The notes below the pieces were generated by a model. It had not been told where the DNA came from, searched no databases, and saw nothing but the letters and a program-made list of their open reading frames with translations. A stretch of DNA of 59,175 nucleotides, the filler included, from Candidatus Woesearchaeota archaeon (lineage in GTDB: Archaea; Nanobdellota; Nanobdellia; Woesearchaeales; GCA-2685855): the NCBI GenBank assembly GCA_002685855.1. It is 4 parts of 4 records of this genome, joined end to end, with 100 filler letters (N's around TTAATTAATTAA, not from the genome) between each part and the next. Parts side by side here need not be neighbours in the genome. Positions count along the whole stretch, not along the records: positions 41,358 to 52,485 come from NYYS01000038.1; 3 more parts are not named here. One strand, written 5' to 3'. The position numbers and the translations under genes were made by a program. This document shows, piece after piece, positions 2,625 to 52,585 of this stretch; position 1 is the first letter of the stretch, and each line of letters begins with the position of its first letter.

Positions 2625-2657
2625 ATGACAGGAGTTGATTATATTCATCATCAGTAG
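2625..2657 (+). promoter_or_regulatory. Putative hisS leader peptide MTGVDYIHHQ*
   Basis: TATTTAAA box at 2595-2602 and ATG at 2625. Tandem His codons CAT CAT are followed by CAG TAG, 60 nt upstream of hisS. Confidence 0.55.
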
Positions 2658-2717: not shown

Positions 2718-3998
2718 ATGAACCTACAAACAGCAAAGGGAGTACAGGACATTCCCCCAGAAGAGGCAATCATCAGGCAACGCATCATCACCACAATCAG
2801 AGAGGCCTTTGAACGCTACGGCTATGCACCTCTGGAAACACCAACATTCGAACTCTTTGAAGTGCTCGCTTCAAAATATAGCGGAGGAGCAGAGATCCTC
2901 AAAGAAACTTTCCAATTCAACGACCAGGGAAAACGAAAACTGGCGCTTAGATATGATCTTACAGTTCCCTTCTCCCGCTTTGTTGGCATGAATCCCCAGC
3001 TAAAGATGCCCTTTAAACGGTATGAAATGGGAAGAGTATACAGAGATGGCCCAATAAAAAAAGGTAGAATGAGAGAGTTCTGGCAGTGCGATGCGGACGT
3101 TGTCGGAACACGAAGCATGGCAGCAGAAGCAGAACTCCTGCTCATGGCAGTAGACGTATTCGAAAAACTTAAGATCGATATTACTTTGAAAGTTAACAAC
3201 AGAAAACTCCTGAACGGCTTCGTAGCCTATGTTGGAGCAAAAAAAGATGCAACAAAGATCATCCTCTCCCTTGACAAACTCGCAAAACAAGGAAGAGCAG
3301 AAGTAAAAAAAGAACTCCTGGAAATCATCCCCGAAGAAAAAGCAGAAAAACTGCTTACACTCGTTCAAACAAAAGGAACGTTCATACAGATCAAAAAAGT
3401 ATTCAGCGTCCTTAACGAAGAGGCACAGGAAGGACTCAAAGAGCTCGAAGAACTCTTCTCATTAACACAAAACAAACGCATCATCTTCGATCCCGGCCTT
3501 GCACGCGGACTCGCCTACTACACCGGAACCGTGTTCGAAGCATTCTGCCCCCAAATGGGCAGCAGCCTCGGAGCAGGCGGGCGTTACGACAGAATGATCG
3601 CAGACTTTCTTGAAAGAAAAGAAGACGTTCCTACCGTCGGATTCTCATTCGGAATCGAACCCATAACAGTGGTAGTAGGAGAACGTGAAACAATCAAACG
3701 AAAAACACCCACCGATCTCTTTGTAATACCGATCGGCACAGCAAAAGAGGCATTTGCATTCACACAATCCCTCAGAGAGAAAGGAATCAAAGCAGACCTC
3801 GACCTTATAGGCAGAGGTATTAGCAAAAATCTCTCTTATGCCAACGGCCTTGCAATCCCCTATGTGGTTATTCTCGGGGAAACAGAACTTAAAGAGAAAA
3901 AGGTCAAAATAAAAAATATGGAATCAGGAAAAGAAGAGCTTGTCGACATGGACAAAGTTGCAAAAAAGATGCTTGCTCTCATAAAAAAAATTGACTAA
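2718..3998 (+). CDS. hisS: Histidyl-tRNA synthetase
   Basis: LALRYDLTVP, YRDGP..GRMREFWQCDAD, LARGLAYYTG, GAGGRYD, and a C-terminal anticodon-binding domain. Confidence 0.97.
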   Translation: MNLQTAKGVQDIPPEEAIIRQRIITTIREAFERYGYAPLETPTFELFEVLASKYSGGAEILKETFQFNDQGKRKLALRYDLTVPFSRFVGMNPQLKMPFKRYEMGRVYRDGPIKKGRMREFWQCDADVVGTRSMAAEAELLLMAVDVFEKLKIDITLKVNNRKLLNGFVAYVGAKKDATKIILSLDKLAKQGRAEVKKELLEIIPEEKAEKLLTLVQTKGTFIQIKKVFSVLNEEAQEGLKELEELFSLTQNKRIIFDPGLARGLAYYTGTVFEAFCPQMGSSLGAGGRYDRMIADFLERKEDVPTVGFSFGIEPITVVVGERETIKRKTPTDLFVIPIGTAKEAFAFTQSLREKGIKADLDLIGRGISKNLSYANGLAIPYVVILGETELKEKKVKIKNMESGKEELVDMDKVAKKMLALIKKID

Positions 3999-13777: not shown

Positions 13778-13877
13778 NNNNNNNNNNNNNNNNNNNNNNN
13801 NNNNNNNNNNNNNNNNNNNNNTTAATTAATTAANNNNNNNNNNNNNNNNNNNNNNNNNNNNNNNNNNNNNNNNNNNN
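13778..13877. other. Artificial contig linker (44N-TTAATTAATTAA-44N)
   Basis: Six-frame-stop spacer, identical at three places in the window. Confidence 0.98.
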
Positions 13878-34833: not shown

Positions 34834-34915
34834 ACTTTCTCGAATCTCCCCTCTTTTATATGTTTAACCCTACAAGAACCGAAAATGTAATAAAACCCTG
34901 CCTCCCTTCCCCAGA

Positions 34916-36400
34916 ATGACCCTCACAATCGACGAAATGGCCGCCTTTTGCAAGAGAAAAGGCTTTGTCTACCCAAGCAGCGAGCTCTATGGAGGACTCG
35001 CAGGCCTTTACGACTATGGTCCGTATGGAACAGAGCTCAAAAACAATATCAAATCCCTTTGGTGGAACTACCATGTTCAAAGCAGAGAGGACATCGTAGG
35101 CATAGACGGCTCTATAATCTCCCATCAGGGAATCTGGAAAGCCTCCGGCCACCTCGACGCATTCTCCGACCCCATGGCGATCTGCACAAAGTGCAAACAC
35201 AAAGACCGTATCGACACCCTCATCGAAGAAAAAACCAATCTCCCAACAGACGGCCTCTCAATGAAGGAGCTCAACGAATTAGTAAAAGAACATAAGATCG
35301 TCTGCCCACACTGCAAAGGCGCATTCCAAGAACTCCAGGACTTCAACCTCATGTTCCCTGTCCAGGTCGGAGCAGATACCTCATCAAAAGGAACCGCCTA
35401 CCTCAGAGGAGAAACCGCACAGCTCATCTTCACGAACTTCAAACTCGTAGCAGAAAATTCCCGCCTAAAACTCCCCTTTGGTATTGCACAGATGGGAAAA
35501 GCGTTCAGGAACGAGATCAGTCCAAGAAACTTCCTCTTCCGCCTCAGAGAGTTTGAACAGATGGATATCGAATACTTTATCCACCCAAAACAGAAATGCC
35601 CCTTTCTCAAAGAGGTAGAAAACTGCACCCTCCAAGTATATACAGCAGAAGACCAGGAAAAAAAGAAAAAACCCACCTTCCTCACAGTCCAAAAGATCCT
35701 ATCCAAAAAAATCATGACAGACTGGCACGCATACTGGTTAGCATACGAACACGAATGGTTCACAAAACTCAACGTCAACCCAAAAAACCTCAGAGTCCGC
35801 CAACACCTAAAAAAGGAAAAAAGCCACTATGCACTAGACACCTGGGATCTTGAATACAACTTCCCATTCGGCTGGAAAGAGGTAGAAGGAATAGCAAACA
35901 GAACAGACTACGACCTCAAGGCACATTCCAAACACTCAAAAAAAGATCTTTCAATCTTTGATGAACAAACAAAAGAGAAGATCATTCCTCATGTAGTAGC
36001 AGAACCCAGCCTCGGAGTAGATCGCTCATTCCTCATCTTCCTCTTGGATGCCTTTCACGACGACAAAAAAAGAGGAAATATCCTGCTAAAACTCCATCCC
36101 AGGCTCGCCCCGGTAAAAGCAGCAATCTTCCCCCTTGTCTCCAACAAAGAGGAGCTCACAAAAAAAGCAAGGACAGTCTACACAATCTTAAAAGACAGTG
36201 TTCCTTGCACCTACGACAAGGGAGGAAGCATCGGACGCAGATATGCCCGTCAGGACGAACTAGGAACGCCCTACTGCATAACTATAGACTTTGACTCCCT
36301 CAAAGATGACACCGTAACCATCAGAGAACGAGACTCTACAGACCAAAAACGCATAAAAATCAGCGAACTTAAGCCCTTTATCCTTGATAAACTCTCATAA
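34916..36400 (+). CDS. glyS: Glycyl-tRNA synthetase (alpha2 type)
   Basis: YDYGPYG, YLRGETAQ, FRNEISPR..FRLREFEQ, EPSLGVDR and SIGRRYARQDE. Confidence 0.97.
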   Translation: MTLTIDEMAAFCKRKGFVYPSSELYGGLAGLYDYGPYGTELKNNIKSLWWNYHVQSREDIVGIDGSIISHQGIWKASGHLDAFSDPMAICTKCKHKDRIDTLIEEKTNLPTDGLSMKELNELVKEHKIVCPHCKGAFQELQDFNLMFPVQVGADTSSKGTAYLRGETAQLIFTNFKLVAENSRLKLPFGIAQMGKAFRNEISPRNFLFRLREFEQMDIEYFIHPKQKCPFLKEVENCTLQVYTAEDQEKKKKPTFLTVQKILSKKIMTDWHAYWLAYEHEWFTKLNVNPKNLRVRQHLKKEKSHYALDTWDLEYNFPFGWKEVEGIANRTDYDLKAHSKHSKKDLSIFDEQTKEKIIPHVVAEPSLGVDRSFLIFLLDAFHDDKKRGNILLKLHPRLAPVKAAIFPLVSNKEELTKKARTVYTILKDSVPCTYDKGGSIGRRYARQDELGTPYCITIDFDSLKDDTVTIRERDSTDQKRIKISELKPFILDKLS

Positions 36401-40107: not shown

Positions 40108-40195
40108 GGGAACGTAGCTCAGACTGGGAGAGCACTACGCTGAAGATTTCCAATCTGAGACGTAGGTGTCCCGGGTTCAAATCCCGGCGTTCCCA
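40108..40195 (+). tRNA. tRNA-Phe(GAA) with a canonical 14-nt intron at 37/38 (40146-40159)
   Basis: GGGAACG/CGTTCCC+A; CTACG-CTGAAG^A-CGTAG; CCGGG-TTCAAAT-CCCGG. Spliced length 74 nt. Confidence 0.93.
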
Positions 40196-41257: not shown

Positions 41258-41357
41258 NNNNNNNNNNNNNNNNNNNNNNNNNNNNNNNNNNNNNNNNNNN
41301 NTTAATTAATTAANNNNNNNNNNNNNNNNNNNNNNNNNNNNNNNNNNNNNNNNNNNN
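41258..41357. other. Artificial contig linker
   Basis: 44N-TTAATTAATTAA-44N. Confidence 0.98.
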
Positions 41358-47538: not shown

Positions 47539-48756
47539 TCATACACTACTCTTTATTGAATCTGAAATTCTCTGCAAACCCACAAGATAGGCAGCAGTTT
47601 TATAATCAACACCATGCTGTTTCCTTAATTCCTGAACAGATTGAACAGCCTCCTTCATCACCCTTTCCAGCCGACGATCCACCTCATCTTTCTCCCACCC
47701 ACTTCCCTCAATATTCTGCAACCATTCAAAATAACTCACCGTAACCCCTCCTGCATTCGCCAAAACATCAGGTAATATAATAACCTTCTCCTTCAAATAC
47801 CTATACGCTGTTTGCGACAAAGGACCGTTCGCCACCTCCAAAATTACCCGAGCCCGAATCCCCTCCATATTCTCCTTAGTAATAACCCCTCCCAACGATG
47901 CAGGAACCAAAATATCACACTCCTTCAAAAGAAGTAAAGAAGGATCCAATAATTCCGTAGCAGGATATCCAACCAAACTCCCCTTTTCATCCTTCCACTT
48001 CCCTACAGCCGCAACATCCAAACCCTTGCCATCATACAATCCCTGCTTACTATCCGCAATCCCAACAACACAAAACCCTTTCTCATATAACAACTCAGCA
48101 ACCGTTCTCCCTGCATTTCCAAACCCATGAATAACAACATTCCTCCCCTCCATCCCCTCCAGCTCTATAAAACTACACAAAACAATAACCGCACCACGCC
48201 CCGTCGCCCGATCCCTTCCAACAATTCCACCCATAGAAAGCGGCTTTCCCGTAATCATACCCTGACTCTTCCCATAGATATCTTCATACTCCTCAAGCAT
48301 CCACCCCATAACCATCTCATTAGTATATACATCAGGAGCAGGAACATCCTTATCAGGACCTAAATGAGGATGCAATGCCCGAACATAGCTCCGACTCAAC
48401 GCCTCAAGCTCCCGCTCAGATAACACCTTAGGATTAATCCGAACTCCACCCTTTCCCCCACCAAACGGAATATTCATCAACGCACACTTAACACTCATCC
48501 AAGCAGCAAGAGCACGAACCTCAGACTCATCAACCTCAGGATGAAAACGAATTCCCCCCTTATACGGACCCAGAACATTACTATGCTGCACACGAAAGCC
48601 AACAGCACTCCCCAAGCTCCCATTATCCCTTCGAAATAAGAGAGGAACCTCAAGAACACGATCCGGTCGAATAATACGCTCAACAACAGTCCTATCCAAA
48701 CCAAGTATCCTCCCCCCTTCCTCTACAAGTTCAGAAAAGCTGCTAAGATCATTCAT
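47539..48756 (-). CDS. gdhA: Glu/Leu/Phe/Val dehydrogenase (glutamate dehydrogenase)
   Basis: GPYKGGIRFHP, PFGGGKGG, DVPAPD, ITGKP, GFGNAG and NAGGVTVSYFEW. Confidence 0.92.
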   Translation of the reverse strand: MNDLSSFSELVEEGGRILGLDRTVVERIIRPDRVLEVPLLFRRDNGSLGSAVGFRVQHSNVLGPYKGGIRFHPEVDESEVRALAAWMSVKCALMNIPFGGGKGGVRINPKVLSERELEALSRSYVRALHPHLGPDKDVPAPDVYTNEMVMGWMLEEYEDIYGKSQGMITGKPLSMGGIVGRDRATGRGAVIVLCSFIELEGMEGRNVVIHGFGNAGRTVAELLYEKGFCVVGIADSKQGLYDGKGLDVAAVGKWKDEKGSLVGYPATELLDPSLLLLKECDILVPASLGGVITKENMEGIRARVILEVANGPLSQTAYRYLKEKVIILPDVLANAGGVTVSYFEWLQNIEGSGWEKDEVDRRLERVMKEAVQSVQELRKQHGVDYKTAAYLVGLQRISDSIKSSV

Positions 48757-48858
48757 ACCAACCGCAAACCACAATCCTTTTTAAAACTAATCTTAAACAC
48801 CCCAACAAAAAATTAACCCAACCATAACCTTTTTAAACCATCCCCTCCCTATCCTCTC

Positions 48859-48906
48859 ATGTTCAATCCTCTCATCCAACGAATGTATTCTATCATTATT
48901 CAATAG
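48859..48906 (+). promoter_or_regulatory. Putative ileS leader peptide MFNPLIQRMYSIIIQ*
   Basis: TTTTAAA box at 48831-48837 and ATG at 48859. ATC ATT ATT is followed by CAA TAG, 15 nt before the ileS ATG. Confidence 0.62.
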
Positions 48907-48921
48907 AGAGGAGGCCCTCCC

Positions 48922-51900
48922 ATGACCGGCTACACCTTTAAGGAAGTTGAAACCCAGATAACAAAACTCTGGAACACTAACAAGATCTATCAGAAAGCCA
49001 AACAAAAAACCAAAGGAAAAGAACTCTTCTACTTCCTCGACGGCCCACCCTACACCTCCGGAAAAGTCCATCTCGGAACAGCATGGAACAAAGCCCTCAA
49101 AGACCTCATCCTCCGCTATAAACGAATGAACAACTTCGACGTCTGGGATCGAGCCGGCTACGACATGCACGGCCTCCCCACAGCACACGCAGTCCAGAAA
49201 AAACTCAACCTCAAAACAAAAGAAGACATCCTCAAATTCGGCATGGACAACTTCGTGAAAGAATGCATAAAACTCAGCACAGAAAACCTCGCACAGATGA
49301 ACAAAGACTTCCAAAAAGAAGGAGTCTGGATGGACTTTGAAAACGCCTACCAAACAATAGACCCCGAACTCATCGACGGAGAATGGTGGCTCGTAAAAGA
49401 GGCCCATAACAAAAAACGCCTCTACGAAGGACTCAAAACCATGCACTGGTGCTACAACTGCGAAACCAGCCTCGCAAAACACGAACTCGCCTATCAGATA
49501 GTCCATGACGACAGCATCTTTGTCAAATTCCCTGTAAAAGGAAAAGAAAACGAATTCATCATTATCTGGACAACAACACCCTGGACCATCCCCTTCAACC
49601 TCGGCGTCATGGTCCACCCCGAACTCGACTACGTCAAAGCAAAAGTCGACAACGAAATATGGATCGTAGCAAAAGCACTTGCAGCATCATTCATCCAGGG
49701 AGTCGTCGACAAACCCCTCGAAATAATCCAAGAATTCAAAGGACAGGCACTCGAAAACTACGAATACATCCACCCCTTTGAACAGCAACTTAAATCACAC
49801 TACGACGAACTCCGAACAACATCAAAAATTCACAGAGTAGTCTTCAGCACAGAATACGTCGACACATCAGCAGGAACAGGAATCGTACATATGGCACCCG
49901 GCTGCGGCCCCGAAGACTTCGAAGTCGGACACCGAAACAAGATCCCTGCATACAACACCCTCTCAGAAGATGGCCACTACCCAGAAAACTACGGAAACTT
50001 CAGCAAGTTCCACGCAAAAAAAGACAACGCCAAATTCACAGAAGAACTCAAAAAACTCGGCGCCCTCATCACAACAACAAAGGTAGAACACGACTACGCC
50101 TTCTGCGATCGCTGCAAAAACCCGATCATCTACAGAACAACAAAACAATGGTTCTTCAAAGTAGAAGACATAAAAGAGAAGATGCTCGAATTCAATAAAG
50201 AGATCTCTTGGGTTCCACAAACAGCACACAACGCATTCAACAGTTGGCTCTCCAATCTTCGCGACAACGGAATAACCCGGCAAACATACTGGGGGACACC
50301 TGCACCAATCTGGAGATGTGATTCCTGCACAGAAATAGAAGTCATAGGAAGCATACAAGAACTCAAAGAAAAAGCAACAAAAAAACTCCCCGCCAACATC
50401 CACAAACCCTGGATAGACAACGTAAAACTATCCTGTAAATGTGGAAAAACTATGACTAGAATACCAGACATCCTTGATGTCTGGGTTGACGCAGGCGTAA
50501 CAAGCTGGACATCCCTCGGATTCCCCCGGCAGAAAGAGCTCTTCAACAAACTCTTCCCTGCCGACTTTATCCTCGAAGGAAAAGACCAGATACGAGGCTG
50601 GTTCAACCTTCTCATGGTAGCCAGCATACTAGGACATGACAAACCCTCATTCAAAGCAGTCTACATGCACGGCTTTATCAACGACGCACAAGGAAGAAAG
50701 ATGTCCAAAAGCCTCGGCAACTACATCCTCCCCGCTGAAGTCTATGATGAATTTGGTGTAGACACCTTCCGCTACTACAGCATAGGCTGTGCCAACCCTG
50801 GAATGGACATGAACTATAATAAAGAGGATGTTCTCATGCGACATAGAAACCTGATGGTACTATGGAACCTCCACACCTACCTACTCAACCTCATCGAACA
50901 ACACAACCTTCATCCCAAACCCCTAGACAAAGCCACCCTAGCAGTAGAAGAAAGATTCATCCTCTCACTCGTTGAGACAACAAAAAAAGAACTCACAAAC
51001 AACCTCAACAACTACAGACTAAACACAGCTCCAGACCTCATCGAACAGCTCTACCTTGAAATATCCCGCACCTACATCCAATTCGTAAGAGAAAAAGCAA
51101 CCAACGGATCAACAAAAGAGAAACAAGCAGTCATCAACACCCTCTTCAAGGCTCTTTACGACACAATACAAATGTTCTCAATAGTCTGCCCATTCATAAC
51201 AGAATCAATCTATCAAAACCTAAAACAACCCTGCAAACTTAAAGAGGAATCAATACACCTCACAGAATGGCCACAACCCAATGAAGAATACATCGACGTC
51301 GTCCTCGAAGAATCACTTAAAGCAGCACAAGAACTCATCGGAGCAATACTCTCTGCACGAGACAAAGCAAAAATTGGCGTACGTTGGCCCCTACCCAACG
51401 TAACAATTGAATGCAATCAGGCACTCCAACAAGCCCTAGAACAACATCTATCCCTCATCCAAAACCAGACAAACATAAAAAAAATAACCTTTGATAATCT
51501 CAACCTCACCTATGCCATAACTCCAAACACCCGAACCATAGGAAAAGAATTCGGGCACGACACAGCAGAAATAATAGAGCTCATACAACAAAACCAAAAA
51601 CCCCTCAACCACGCAATAAAAAACAACGAAACAATAATCCTAAAAAAACACACCTTGAAAAAAGAACACTTCCAACTCGAACCAAACACACCAGAACAAA
51701 AAAGCTACAGCGCATTCAAAGGAGGAGAACTCCTTCTCCACACAGAACAATCCGAAGAACTCCTCAAAGAAGGCTACCTTCGAGAACTCATCAGAAGAAT
51801 ACAGTCACTCAGGAAAAAAGCAGGACTCAAAAAAAGCAACACAGTAATTCTTTCACTCGCAGGAGACCTCGACCTCTCCAAAGAACTAGAATCCCAAAAA

Positions 51901-52485: not shown

Positions 52486-52585
52486 NNNNNNNNNNNNNNN
52501 NNNNNNNNNNNNNNNNNNNNNNNNNNNNNTTAATTAATTAANNNNNNNNNNNNNNNNNNNNNNNNNNNNNNNNNNNNNNNNNNNN
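52486..52585. other. Artificial contig linker
   Basis: 44N-TTAATTAATTAA-44N. Confidence 0.98.

Follow-up and report, generated by a model that had tools for sequence, protein, structure and literature searches.

How does an archaeon keep the supply of an aminoacyl-tRNA synthetase (aaRS) in step with the amino acid that the enzyme charges? To our knowledge, archaea have no T-boxes, and the matching of their synthetase levels to amino-acid supply is largely unknown. The question is raised by an intergenic region in the genome of a Candidatus Woesearchaeota archaeon (GenBank assembly GCA_002685855.1; a bin of 66 contigs and 953,131 bases, 94% complete), which is flanked by a divergent gene of the glutamate dehydrogenase family (47539-48774, minus strand) and by ileS, the gene for isoleucyl-tRNA synthetase (IleRS). 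Between them lies a micro open reading frame (micro-ORF) with a run of isoleucine codons near its end. We examined it in a stretch of 59,175 nucleotides (the window), in which four parts of this genome are joined by runs of N at 13778-13877, 41258-41357 and 52486-52585; ileS lies on contig C38 and hisS on contig C35, and the window also contains TBP and MCM genes. The balance of evidence leans towards the micro-ORF being a cis-acting leader peptide, on which the translating ribosome would gauge charged tRNA-Ile and set IleRS synthesis by translation attenuation.

Results

The ileS gene looks like the second cistron behind a leaderless micro-ORF

A crude gene call gave 1015 genes for this genome. 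TATA-like hexamers lie 30-26 nt before start codons 242 times genome-wide, against 23-54 times in every other 5-nt bin, and because of this peak we conclude that first genes in this genome are mostly leaderless. A promoter matrix built from the 242 genes with a hexamer at this spacing scores 13.1 bits at the micro-ORF ATG, where the median of true promoters is 8.8 bits and the random 99.9th percentile 7.7 bits; at the ileS ATG it scores -7.5 bits. Shine-Dalgarno (SD)-like motifs precede 11/242 genes with a promoter at leaderless spacing, compared with 140/462 genes without one. With an SD but without a promoter of its own, ileS looks like the second cistron behind a leaderless first cistron of 15 codons. 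Transcription from the predicted promoter P1 (Table 1), with the mRNA beginning at the AUG of the micro-ORF, is strongly supported by these scores, as is the predicted dependence of ileS on its SD.

A preliminary description of this DNA had placed a TTTTAAA box at a distance typical of leaderless genes before the micro-ORF and had seen no second TATA box between leader and ileS. The box, at 48831-48837, indeed begins 28 nt before the ATG at 48859; the spacing is borne out by the genome-wide hexamer peak and the 13.1-bit score, and the absence of a second box by the negative score at ileS. The four Ile codons that it had counted are ATC at 48874-76 and ATC ATT ATT at 48892-48900, followed by CAA and TAG, and the sequence also agrees with its proposed pairings, TCCTCTC (48867-73) being complementary to GAGAGGA (48906-12), with CTCC at 48917-20 and GGAGG at 48910-14. 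A spacer of 15 nt that contains no T run separates the micro-ORF stop from the ileS ATG. Neither a sigma-70 promoter nor a bacterial-type terminator was found in the ileS leader on scanning 48700-49100. We also considered whether the Ile run could itself be a weak TATA box serving a leaderless ileS; this was ruled out, with matrix scores of -7.5 to -1.4 bits for implied starts at 48918-48926 and an SD present. One RNA-library contig (metatranscriptome run X3, 153 nt, 0 mismatches) corresponds to 48898-49047, spanning the ileS start with 24 nt upstream; its reach into the micro-ORF fits a leadered ileS mRNA.

Cognate codon runs are enriched before synthetase genes of the same genome

Upstream spacers of 60 nt or more are present at 506 genes, and among these, micro-ORFs of 4-40 codons contain III before four, LLLL before two and HH before five, and ileS, leuS and hisS are among them. 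Of the four III cases, the one at ileS alone is TATA-anchored. Twelve aaRS genes have enough upstream spacer to be tested. Three of them have cognate runs of at least two residues in TATA-anchored micro-ORFs (ileS III, leuS LLLL, hisS HH), a result equalled in 1 of 200,000 random 12-gene draws in which the random genes were assigned the same 12 cognate residues (P about 5e-6). By the plainest criterion, any micro-ORF with a run of two, the count is 4/12 (P = 0.0028). The enrichment of cognate codons at aaRS genes over other genes that the preliminary description had anticipated was therefore found in its own genome under either criterion.

The better twin of the ileS leader is the putative leader of leuS on another contig of this genome (C11, 1425-4106; TIGR00396, 1015.6 bits), where MITLSDHRILLLLS and a stop precede the gene and the promoter matrix gives 12.5 bits at the micro-ORF ATG. 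The earlier candidate for a matching architecture was hisS. Its layout holds, as the ileS, leuS and hisS micro-ORFs are alike in having the run, one codon and TAG, whereas two other results speak against it: hisS itself has a 9.9-bit promoter at leaderless spacing, stronger than that of its micro-ORF (5.0-7.3 bits), and a promoter-anchored micro-ORF with a His run precedes hisS in 0 of 35 relatives. We consider the candidate hisS leader doubtful. Ordinary promoters at leaderless spacing, and no cognate micro-ORFs, were seen at the remaining aaRS genes of this genome, among them metS, pheS, proS, valS and gltX.

As a side observation on hisS, a tRNA-His(GTG) lies directly upstream of the gene at seven loci of related genomes (L076, L088, L089, L091, L099, L295 and L298; a single tRNA call per locus, on the same strand by eye). 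Such adjacency would pair the synthetase gene with the gene of its cognate tRNA, which is another way in which the two might be linked. At locus L047 a tRNA-His stands before leuS.

Ile-run leaders precede ileS in ten families of related archaea

This genome has no close kin in the collection: the 40 relatives all belong to other families of one order, and their IleRS is at most 62% identical, over a partial match. IleRS was detected in 316 of 401 genomes when the whole order was searched; 15 unpublished genomes enter this tally but none of the other results. For comparison we assembled 124 ileS upstream regions, 31 from the initial searches and 93 from the 119 order-wide loci tried once three unpublished and six duplicate loci had been set aside, of which 95 gave N-terminal matches and 93 had at least 100 nt upstream. 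Scoring was blind to peptide content, accepting any ATG-initiated micro-ORF of 4-40 codons for which the own-genome matrix gave at least 8 bits within 2 nt of the expected spacing.

Twenty-two promoter-anchored micro-ORFs were found in this way, and in 18 of them II occurs within the last seven residues. The conserved Ile-rich upstream ORF predicted in the preliminary description is thus present in 18 of the 124 regions. The Ile-run leaders come from ten families, with the consensus ..IISIIII directly before the stop, and family f21 has them in 6/6 examined genomes; examples, each ending at a stop codon, are MTGSCSIRNGISIII, MKYCRKSIISIII, MNQNATGIISIIII, MHMHIKNKNIISIIIIA and MSADLIQLQISVIII. 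The layout of the window's leader is shared with 17 promoter-anchored Ile-run micro-ORFs before the ileS genes of relatives, and the stretch TTCTATCATTATT at its sensor run is the same in the leaders of L124, L176 and L192. Leader lengths range from 6 to 35 codons and the N-terminal parts are variable, the run and its position before the stop being what is kept. Third positions of the Ile codons vary between ATT, ATC and ATA while Ile is retained. The Ile run near the micro-ORF end is strongly supported by these comparisons as a conserved feature.

A background sample and two control genes indicate that the putative Ile-run leaders are specific to ileS. In 500 kb of relatives' DNA there are 76 anchored micro-ORFs, and III occurs in seven entries, six of which represent ileS leaders (at four sites, some of them retrieved in duplicate), while the seventh lies elsewhere. 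Upstream of the leuS (28 regions) and hisS (30 regions) genes of relatives, four anchored micro-ORFs were found, none with II. Furthermore, leader and ileS are tied to one mRNA by a contrast in how ileS itself is equipped: an SD is present at 12/18 leader-bearing genes and at 11/106 genes that lack a micro-ORF leader, and a promoter of its own at 8/18 and 88/106, respectively.

The distribution has some further details. The families of genomes G019 and G005 comprise two genomes and one genome, and the second f20 genome (G041, locus L104) has no ileS leader. The sole anchored III micro-ORF outside ileS encodes MRISYIIIY before its stop (L095, minus strand, 3868 of the reversed locus) and lies about 70 nt before an unidentified ORF cut by the locus end. 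In several relatives (L006, L012, L021, L104) the ileS promoter directly follows the end of a conserved gene, which encodes a micro-protein of roughly 48 residues containing two CxxC pairs.

The run residue follows the downstream synthetase

Leaders before other synthetase genes were sought in genomes picked solely for having an ileS leader (ten, five or six for each gene). Val-run leaders precede valS in 4/10 (MTHVVVVVA, MICVVVVVA, MSQASLVNVVVVVL and MNRLLKVYMVLVV, each before a stop). Anchored thrS leaders occur in 3/5, ending ...VLTTTTTTA, ...LTTTTTTTTTH and ...TTLTTTTTA, and a fourth was seen by eye in L266. The leuS gene has the leader MKLNGLDLLLLLVL, with two more by eye at weaker promoter scores (...LLVLLLLL and ...GLSLLLL); serS has one in 1/5 (MNIYMNQSSSSSQSS) and pheS in 1/6 (...HIFFFI), all directly before a stop, and a Met-rich peptide precedes metS in 1/4. 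In these leader-bearing genomes no cognate leader was found for proS (5), tyrS/trpS (11) or hisS (6), and no convincing one for leuS and hisS among the 40 order-level relatives, where the HH micro-ORFs (L083, L094, L099) are unanchored or overlap a tRNA gene.

When anchored micro-ORFs (promoter of at least 6 bits) before 241 aaRS genes outside the genome of the window were counted, 23 of 29 runs of at least three residues proved cognate (I 14, V 3, T 3, L 1, S 1, F 1). The remaining six comprise two N runs, one of A that falls within a tRNA gene, one of Q, and one each of K and R that share a peptide. Because the runs also use GTN, ACN and TCN/AGY codons, AT-richness is excluded as their cause.

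A motif of a different kind, TCATTGT, lies 6-12 nt after the leader stop whatever the amino acid at L245, L249, L250, L258, L267, L269, L273 and L291 (valS, leuS, thrS, serS, metS). The terminator scan reads it as a T-rich tail, and ileS leaders of the same family have CAAT(G) instead. The motif may be a shared signal for termination or for protein binding.

Leaders in relatives are associated with several RNA layouts

In most relatives' leaders a GC-rich hairpin is seen by eye right behind the leader stop. Three layouts were distinguished. In Layout A (family f21 and others), a short GC hairpin followed by a T-rich tail has the stop codon of the thrS or valS leader in its loop. The thrS leader of L267 has ACAGCGTAAGCTGT and such a tail (one terminator-like site found, 0.2 expected), and the valS leader of L250 has GGTGGCGTGAGCCACT and a tail (two overlapping sites, 0.1 expected). 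In a single-hairpin layout of this kind, whether stalling turns expression on or off depends on the relative timing of polymerase and ribosome.

Layout B (seven genomes, five families) has a helix between the Ile-run segment and its complement, which lies 25-50 nt further downstream. In an alignment of seven of eight leaders (L212 dropped), cut so that the arms lie at its ends, 61/67 cells are paired, compared with 37-61% when the partner is slid; one pair appears as CG, UA, GC and UG, and the covariation score is matched by 15/500 shuffles. RNAalifold predicted no pair on the earlier eight-leader alignment, in which the arms are out of register. This pairing partly explains the retention of a Ser codon, TCT, within the Ile run. 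In Layout C (three f21 ileS leaders), the partner of the Ile-run region is the SD region, and predicted accessibility of the ribosome-binding site on stalling rises from 0.33 to 0.56, from 0.41 to 0.61 and from 0.25 to 0.53.

A predicted switch that would expose the ileS Shine-Dalgarno sequence

In the window, the minimum-energy fold joins TCCTCTC (+9..+15) to GAGAGGA (+48..+54) in a 7-bp stem of -8.74 kcal/mol. With a stalled ribosome modelled by deleting the RNA 5' of it, the predicted unpaired probability of the SD rises from 0.12 in the free leader to 0.47-0.48 with a ribosome on Ile12-14. Stalls at Ile12, Ile13 and Ile14 put the P site 33, 30 and 27 nt from the ileS AUG. Since the footprint of a ribosome is about 30 nt, the stalls at Ile12 and Ile13 just leave room for a second ribosome. 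The scan of 48700-49100 found no terminator-like site, the leuS leader of the same genome likewise has none, and no mutually exclusive antiterminator helix was found in the 15-nt spacer before ileS. Because of this lack of a terminator-like site and the shortness of the spacer, control of initiation is the only step evident at ileS.

We infer both the mechanism of the switch and its direction. In the free leader, the TCCTCTC/GAGAGGA and GGAG/CTCC pairings would jointly hide the SD. With Ile-tRNA plentiful, a ribosome on the leader would quickly reach UAG and leave, the leader would refold, and ileS would be started at a basal rate, partly by re-initiation. With Ile-tRNA short, the ribosome would wait at codons 12-14 and hold the anti-SD segment behind it, leaving the SD exposed; with Ile12 or Ile13 in the A site, one ribosome width would remain to the ileS start, so that a second ribosome could initiate and more IleRS would be made. 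We favour stalling as the signal that turns ileS on because ileS has no other promoter and cognate positive feedback on an essential enzyme would presumably run away.

Table 1. Features of the ileS leader region and the candidate hisS leader; positions count along the window
Feature	Position	Strand	Evidence and remarks
Promoter P1 (TFB recognition element/TATA)	48822..48838	+	TATA TTTTTAAA at 48830-37; implied transcript start about 48859; 13.1 bits
Leader micro-ORF, leaderless (predicted), 15 codons and TAG (48904-06), MFNPLIQRMYSIIIQ	48859..48906	+	Promoter spacing, codon reading
Sensor run ATC ATT ATT, codons 12-14, after Ser TCT	48892..48900	+	Codon reading
Anti-SD-like segment TCCTCTC, within micro-ORF codons 3-5	48867..48873	+	Pairs with 48906-12 in the minimum-energy fold
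Purine tract GAGAGGAGG with ileS SD GGAGG (48910-14), 7 nt before the ATG	48906..48914	+	Sequence
Small hairpin GGAG-GCC-CTCC, able to hide the SD locally	48910..48920	+	-3.4 kcal/mol
ileS, isoleucyl-tRNA synthetase, 1031 aa	48922..52017	+	Pfam tRNA-synt_1, 7.3e-112; TIGR00392, 785.8 bits
Possible His leader MTGVDYIHHQ before hisS (2718-3998)	2625..2657	+	Micro-ORF promoter 5.0-7.3 bits; weak case

Other observations in the genome

Four further features were recorded. The glyS gene (34916-36400), which has no promoter at leaderless spacing, is preceded at a distance of 25 nt by a start-stop mini-ORF, ATG TAA (34885-34890), itself 30 nt downstream of a TATA-like hexamer. An 88-nt tRNA at 40108-40195 (Rfam, 56.3 bits), which ARAGORN does not report, probably contains an intron. 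About five tandem units of about 11 nt, each containing CTGAGAC, lie 40-110 nt before pheS (G000:C52, 14792-16324, minus strand). Finally, a bacterial-type DnaA (TIGR00362, 481.9 bits) is encoded at G000:C43:992-2347, outside the window and in the same bin as archaeal TBP and MCM, and is explained by either a contaminated bin or gene transfer.

Discussion

The preliminary description had proposed a ribosome-mediated cognate leader at an archaeal synthetase gene, with an anti-SD switch as its output. Its first part is strongly supported by comparison across the order. The second fared less well: covariation in the anti-SD stem found no support, the stem not being conserved among relatives' leaders, and the switch, though predicted to hide the SD, is statistically indistinguishable from shuffled sequence.

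Several results weigh against translation attenuation as we have drawn it. The fold energy of the ileS leader is ordinary (z = -0.50; 59/200 shuffles fold equally well), as is that of the leuS leader (z = -1.28; 22/200 shuffles). The anti-SD stem is not seen in relatives, which have other layouts, and across 17 relatives' leaders the mean predicted accessibility of the ribosome-binding site shifts only slightly on stalling, from 0.49 to 0.55. A stall at Ile14, 27 nt from the ileS start, would probably clash with an initiating ribosome. The trait is also patchy, with 106/124 sampled ileS genes lacking such a leader, including those of the closest relatives found, L032 and L033 (68-70% identical over the N-terminal 250 residues of IleRS, and represented by only two metagenome loci). 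The X3 contig is a single one of low depth, possibly from DNA carry-over, and assembled contigs cannot show transcript ends, strand or level; the missing RNA-run coverage of 48859-48897 likewise carries no weight as evidence. Lastly, the criteria of the permutation tests were set post hoc, which makes the larger P value the more cautious choice; the promoter matrix is derived from this genome only, the gene calls are crude and the related genomes are non-independent.

Two alternatives keep the micro-ORF as a translated element and change what it does. In the first, ileS is started mainly by ribosomes that have finished the micro-ORF, so that Ile shortage would lower IleRS, a stringent-like brake acting in cis. 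The order of UAG (48904-06), GGAGG (48910-14) and ATG (48922) suits termination and re-initiation, a ribosome at the micro-ORF stop would, by the predicted geometry, cover and melt both SD-hiding structures, and in some relatives a terminator-like hairpin has the leader stop in its loop and would be fully covered only by a ribosome that gets to the end. Such cognate positive feedback on an essential enzyme without a second promoter would, however, be self-amplifying, the cognate specificity at six synthetase types points to specific feedback and not to a general brake, and stalling turns genes on in known leader-peptide systems, as far as the accessible parts of two sources describe them (bioRxiv 10.1101/834739; PMC1262725). 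We consider positive coupling unlikely.

The second alternative places control on the RNA chain, with the position of the leader ribosome deciding between continued synthesis and premature termination (intrinsic, or brought about by a factor on nascent RNA that is not being translated) or deciding transcript decay. This would account for the leaders that end within terminator-like sites (thrS of L267, valS of L250) and for the helix between Ile run and downstream segment kept in seven genomes (61/67 cells paired). The window itself, in contrast, has no terminator-like site and a 15-nt spacer free of T runs, its own leuS leader is alike in this respect, and no antiterminator partner was seen by eye in the single-hairpin leaders; for ileS we regard this alternative, too, as improbable.

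Chance is a very improbable explanation and close to refuted, whether the Ile codons are an accidental reading of AT-rich intergenic DNA or the stretch is a degenerate TATA box of a leaderless ileS. Ile codons are indeed AT-rich, the run sits 30-22 nt before the ileS ATG, where a TATA box is expected, and the fold energy is not unusual. Nonetheless, the matrix score at ileS is -7.5 and a GGAGG SD is rare in leaderless genes (11/242), permutation gives P from 5e-6 to 0.003, 18/22 anchored ileS micro-ORFs are Ile-rich at their end against one III elsewhere in 500 kb, and the Val, Thr and Ser runs before valS, thrS and serS contain GC. Least credible of all is a small hydrophobic trans-acting protein placed before ileS by accident, for although the C-terminal IISIIII is hydrophobic and the 23-residue L026 peptide could span a membrane, N-terminal parts and lengths (6-35 codons) are unconserved with only the run and its place before the stop kept, and the run residue changes with the downstream synthetase (TTTTTT, VVVVV, SSSSS, polar runs among them), which excludes such a function.

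How does translation attenuation at ileS compare with systems known in bacteria? The pheM-pheST locus of gamma-proteobacteria has a leader-peptide attenuator before an aaRS gene. Like such classical attenuators, the window has a short ORF with the synthetase's own codons directly upstream of the synthetase gene, and a short ORF with a cognate codon run 15 nt before ileS is what the broad notion of a leader-peptide sensor calls for. Classical attenuators combine an SD-led leader ORF with a terminator hairpin, its U tract and an antiterminator, whereas the window has neither structure and a leaderless ORF. Attenuators of trpS and leuS have been predicted in Streptomyces, and translational T-boxes lie before actinobacterial ileS, according to the available part of one source (PMC1262725). 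As far as that part goes, the T-box resembles our case in the gene, in tRNA-Ile charging as the signal and, in the actinobacterial type, in a hairpin that hides the SD.

A T-box binds uncharged tRNA directly and independently of translation, unlike the leader proposed here. An Rfam scan of the whole window at gathering thresholds returned two tRNAs, with no T-box and no other RNA family. The ileS leader thus fails both as a classical terminator-based attenuator and as a T-box. The ilvBNC operon of Corynebacterium glutamicum is preceded by a leaderless three-hairpin attenuator (PMC11857589). In the accessible part of that source it is similar in that a branched-chain amino-acid leader controls the downstream operon through RNA hairpins; it is bacterial, serves biosynthetic genes and, unlike the window, uses a terminator, an antiterminator and an anti-antiterminator.

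The closest known system is found in mycobacteria, where leaderless polycysteine short ORFs are cysteine-responsive translation attenuators at several loci, termed a 'ribulon' in the accessible portion of a preprint (bioRxiv 10.1101/834739). From that portion we infer by analogy that the logic proposed for the window would be the one shown there experimentally. In both, a leaderless short ORF is the first cistron, the sensor codons stand at its 3' end and the design recurs at several loci. Sensor ORFs of this type require a start at the 5' end of the transcript, which is what promoter spacing predicts for the micro-ORF. The differences apparent from the same portion are that the mycobacterial ORFs are bacterial, sense cysteine and precede cysteine-metabolism genes, whereas the present putative leaders are archaeal and would target aaRS genes; furthermore, the anti-SD partner in the window is an early part of the ORF and not the run itself.

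Taken with these comparisons, the ileS leader is probably a ribosome-based amino-acid gauge of a kind so far described only in bacteria. Full-text literature searches (PMC and preprints, with subscription journals mostly uncovered) yielded no description of leader-peptide sensors upstream of synthetase genes in archaea.

A wider proposal covers the order as a whole, and we rate it as fairly probable: a regulon without a regulator, in which leaderless leader peptides made of a synthetase's own codons would let the ribosome set at least six, perhaps eight, aaRS genes across a very large order of small-genome archaea. The putative members seen are those for Ile, Val, Leu, Thr, Ser and Phe, with Met and His possible. 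As part of the same proposal, the leaders would act through at least three output modules, namely hiding of the SD, a terminator-like hairpin that spans the stop codon, and a long helix that the codon run forms.

If true, this would be ribosome-mediated amino-acid attenuation in Archaea, extending the principle of the ribosome as sensor to the third domain, and it would mean that this principle works on leaderless mRNAs and connects to different outputs. The leader also offers a testable handle on gene control in uncultured, host-dependent archaea and a simple sequence signature for their annotation.

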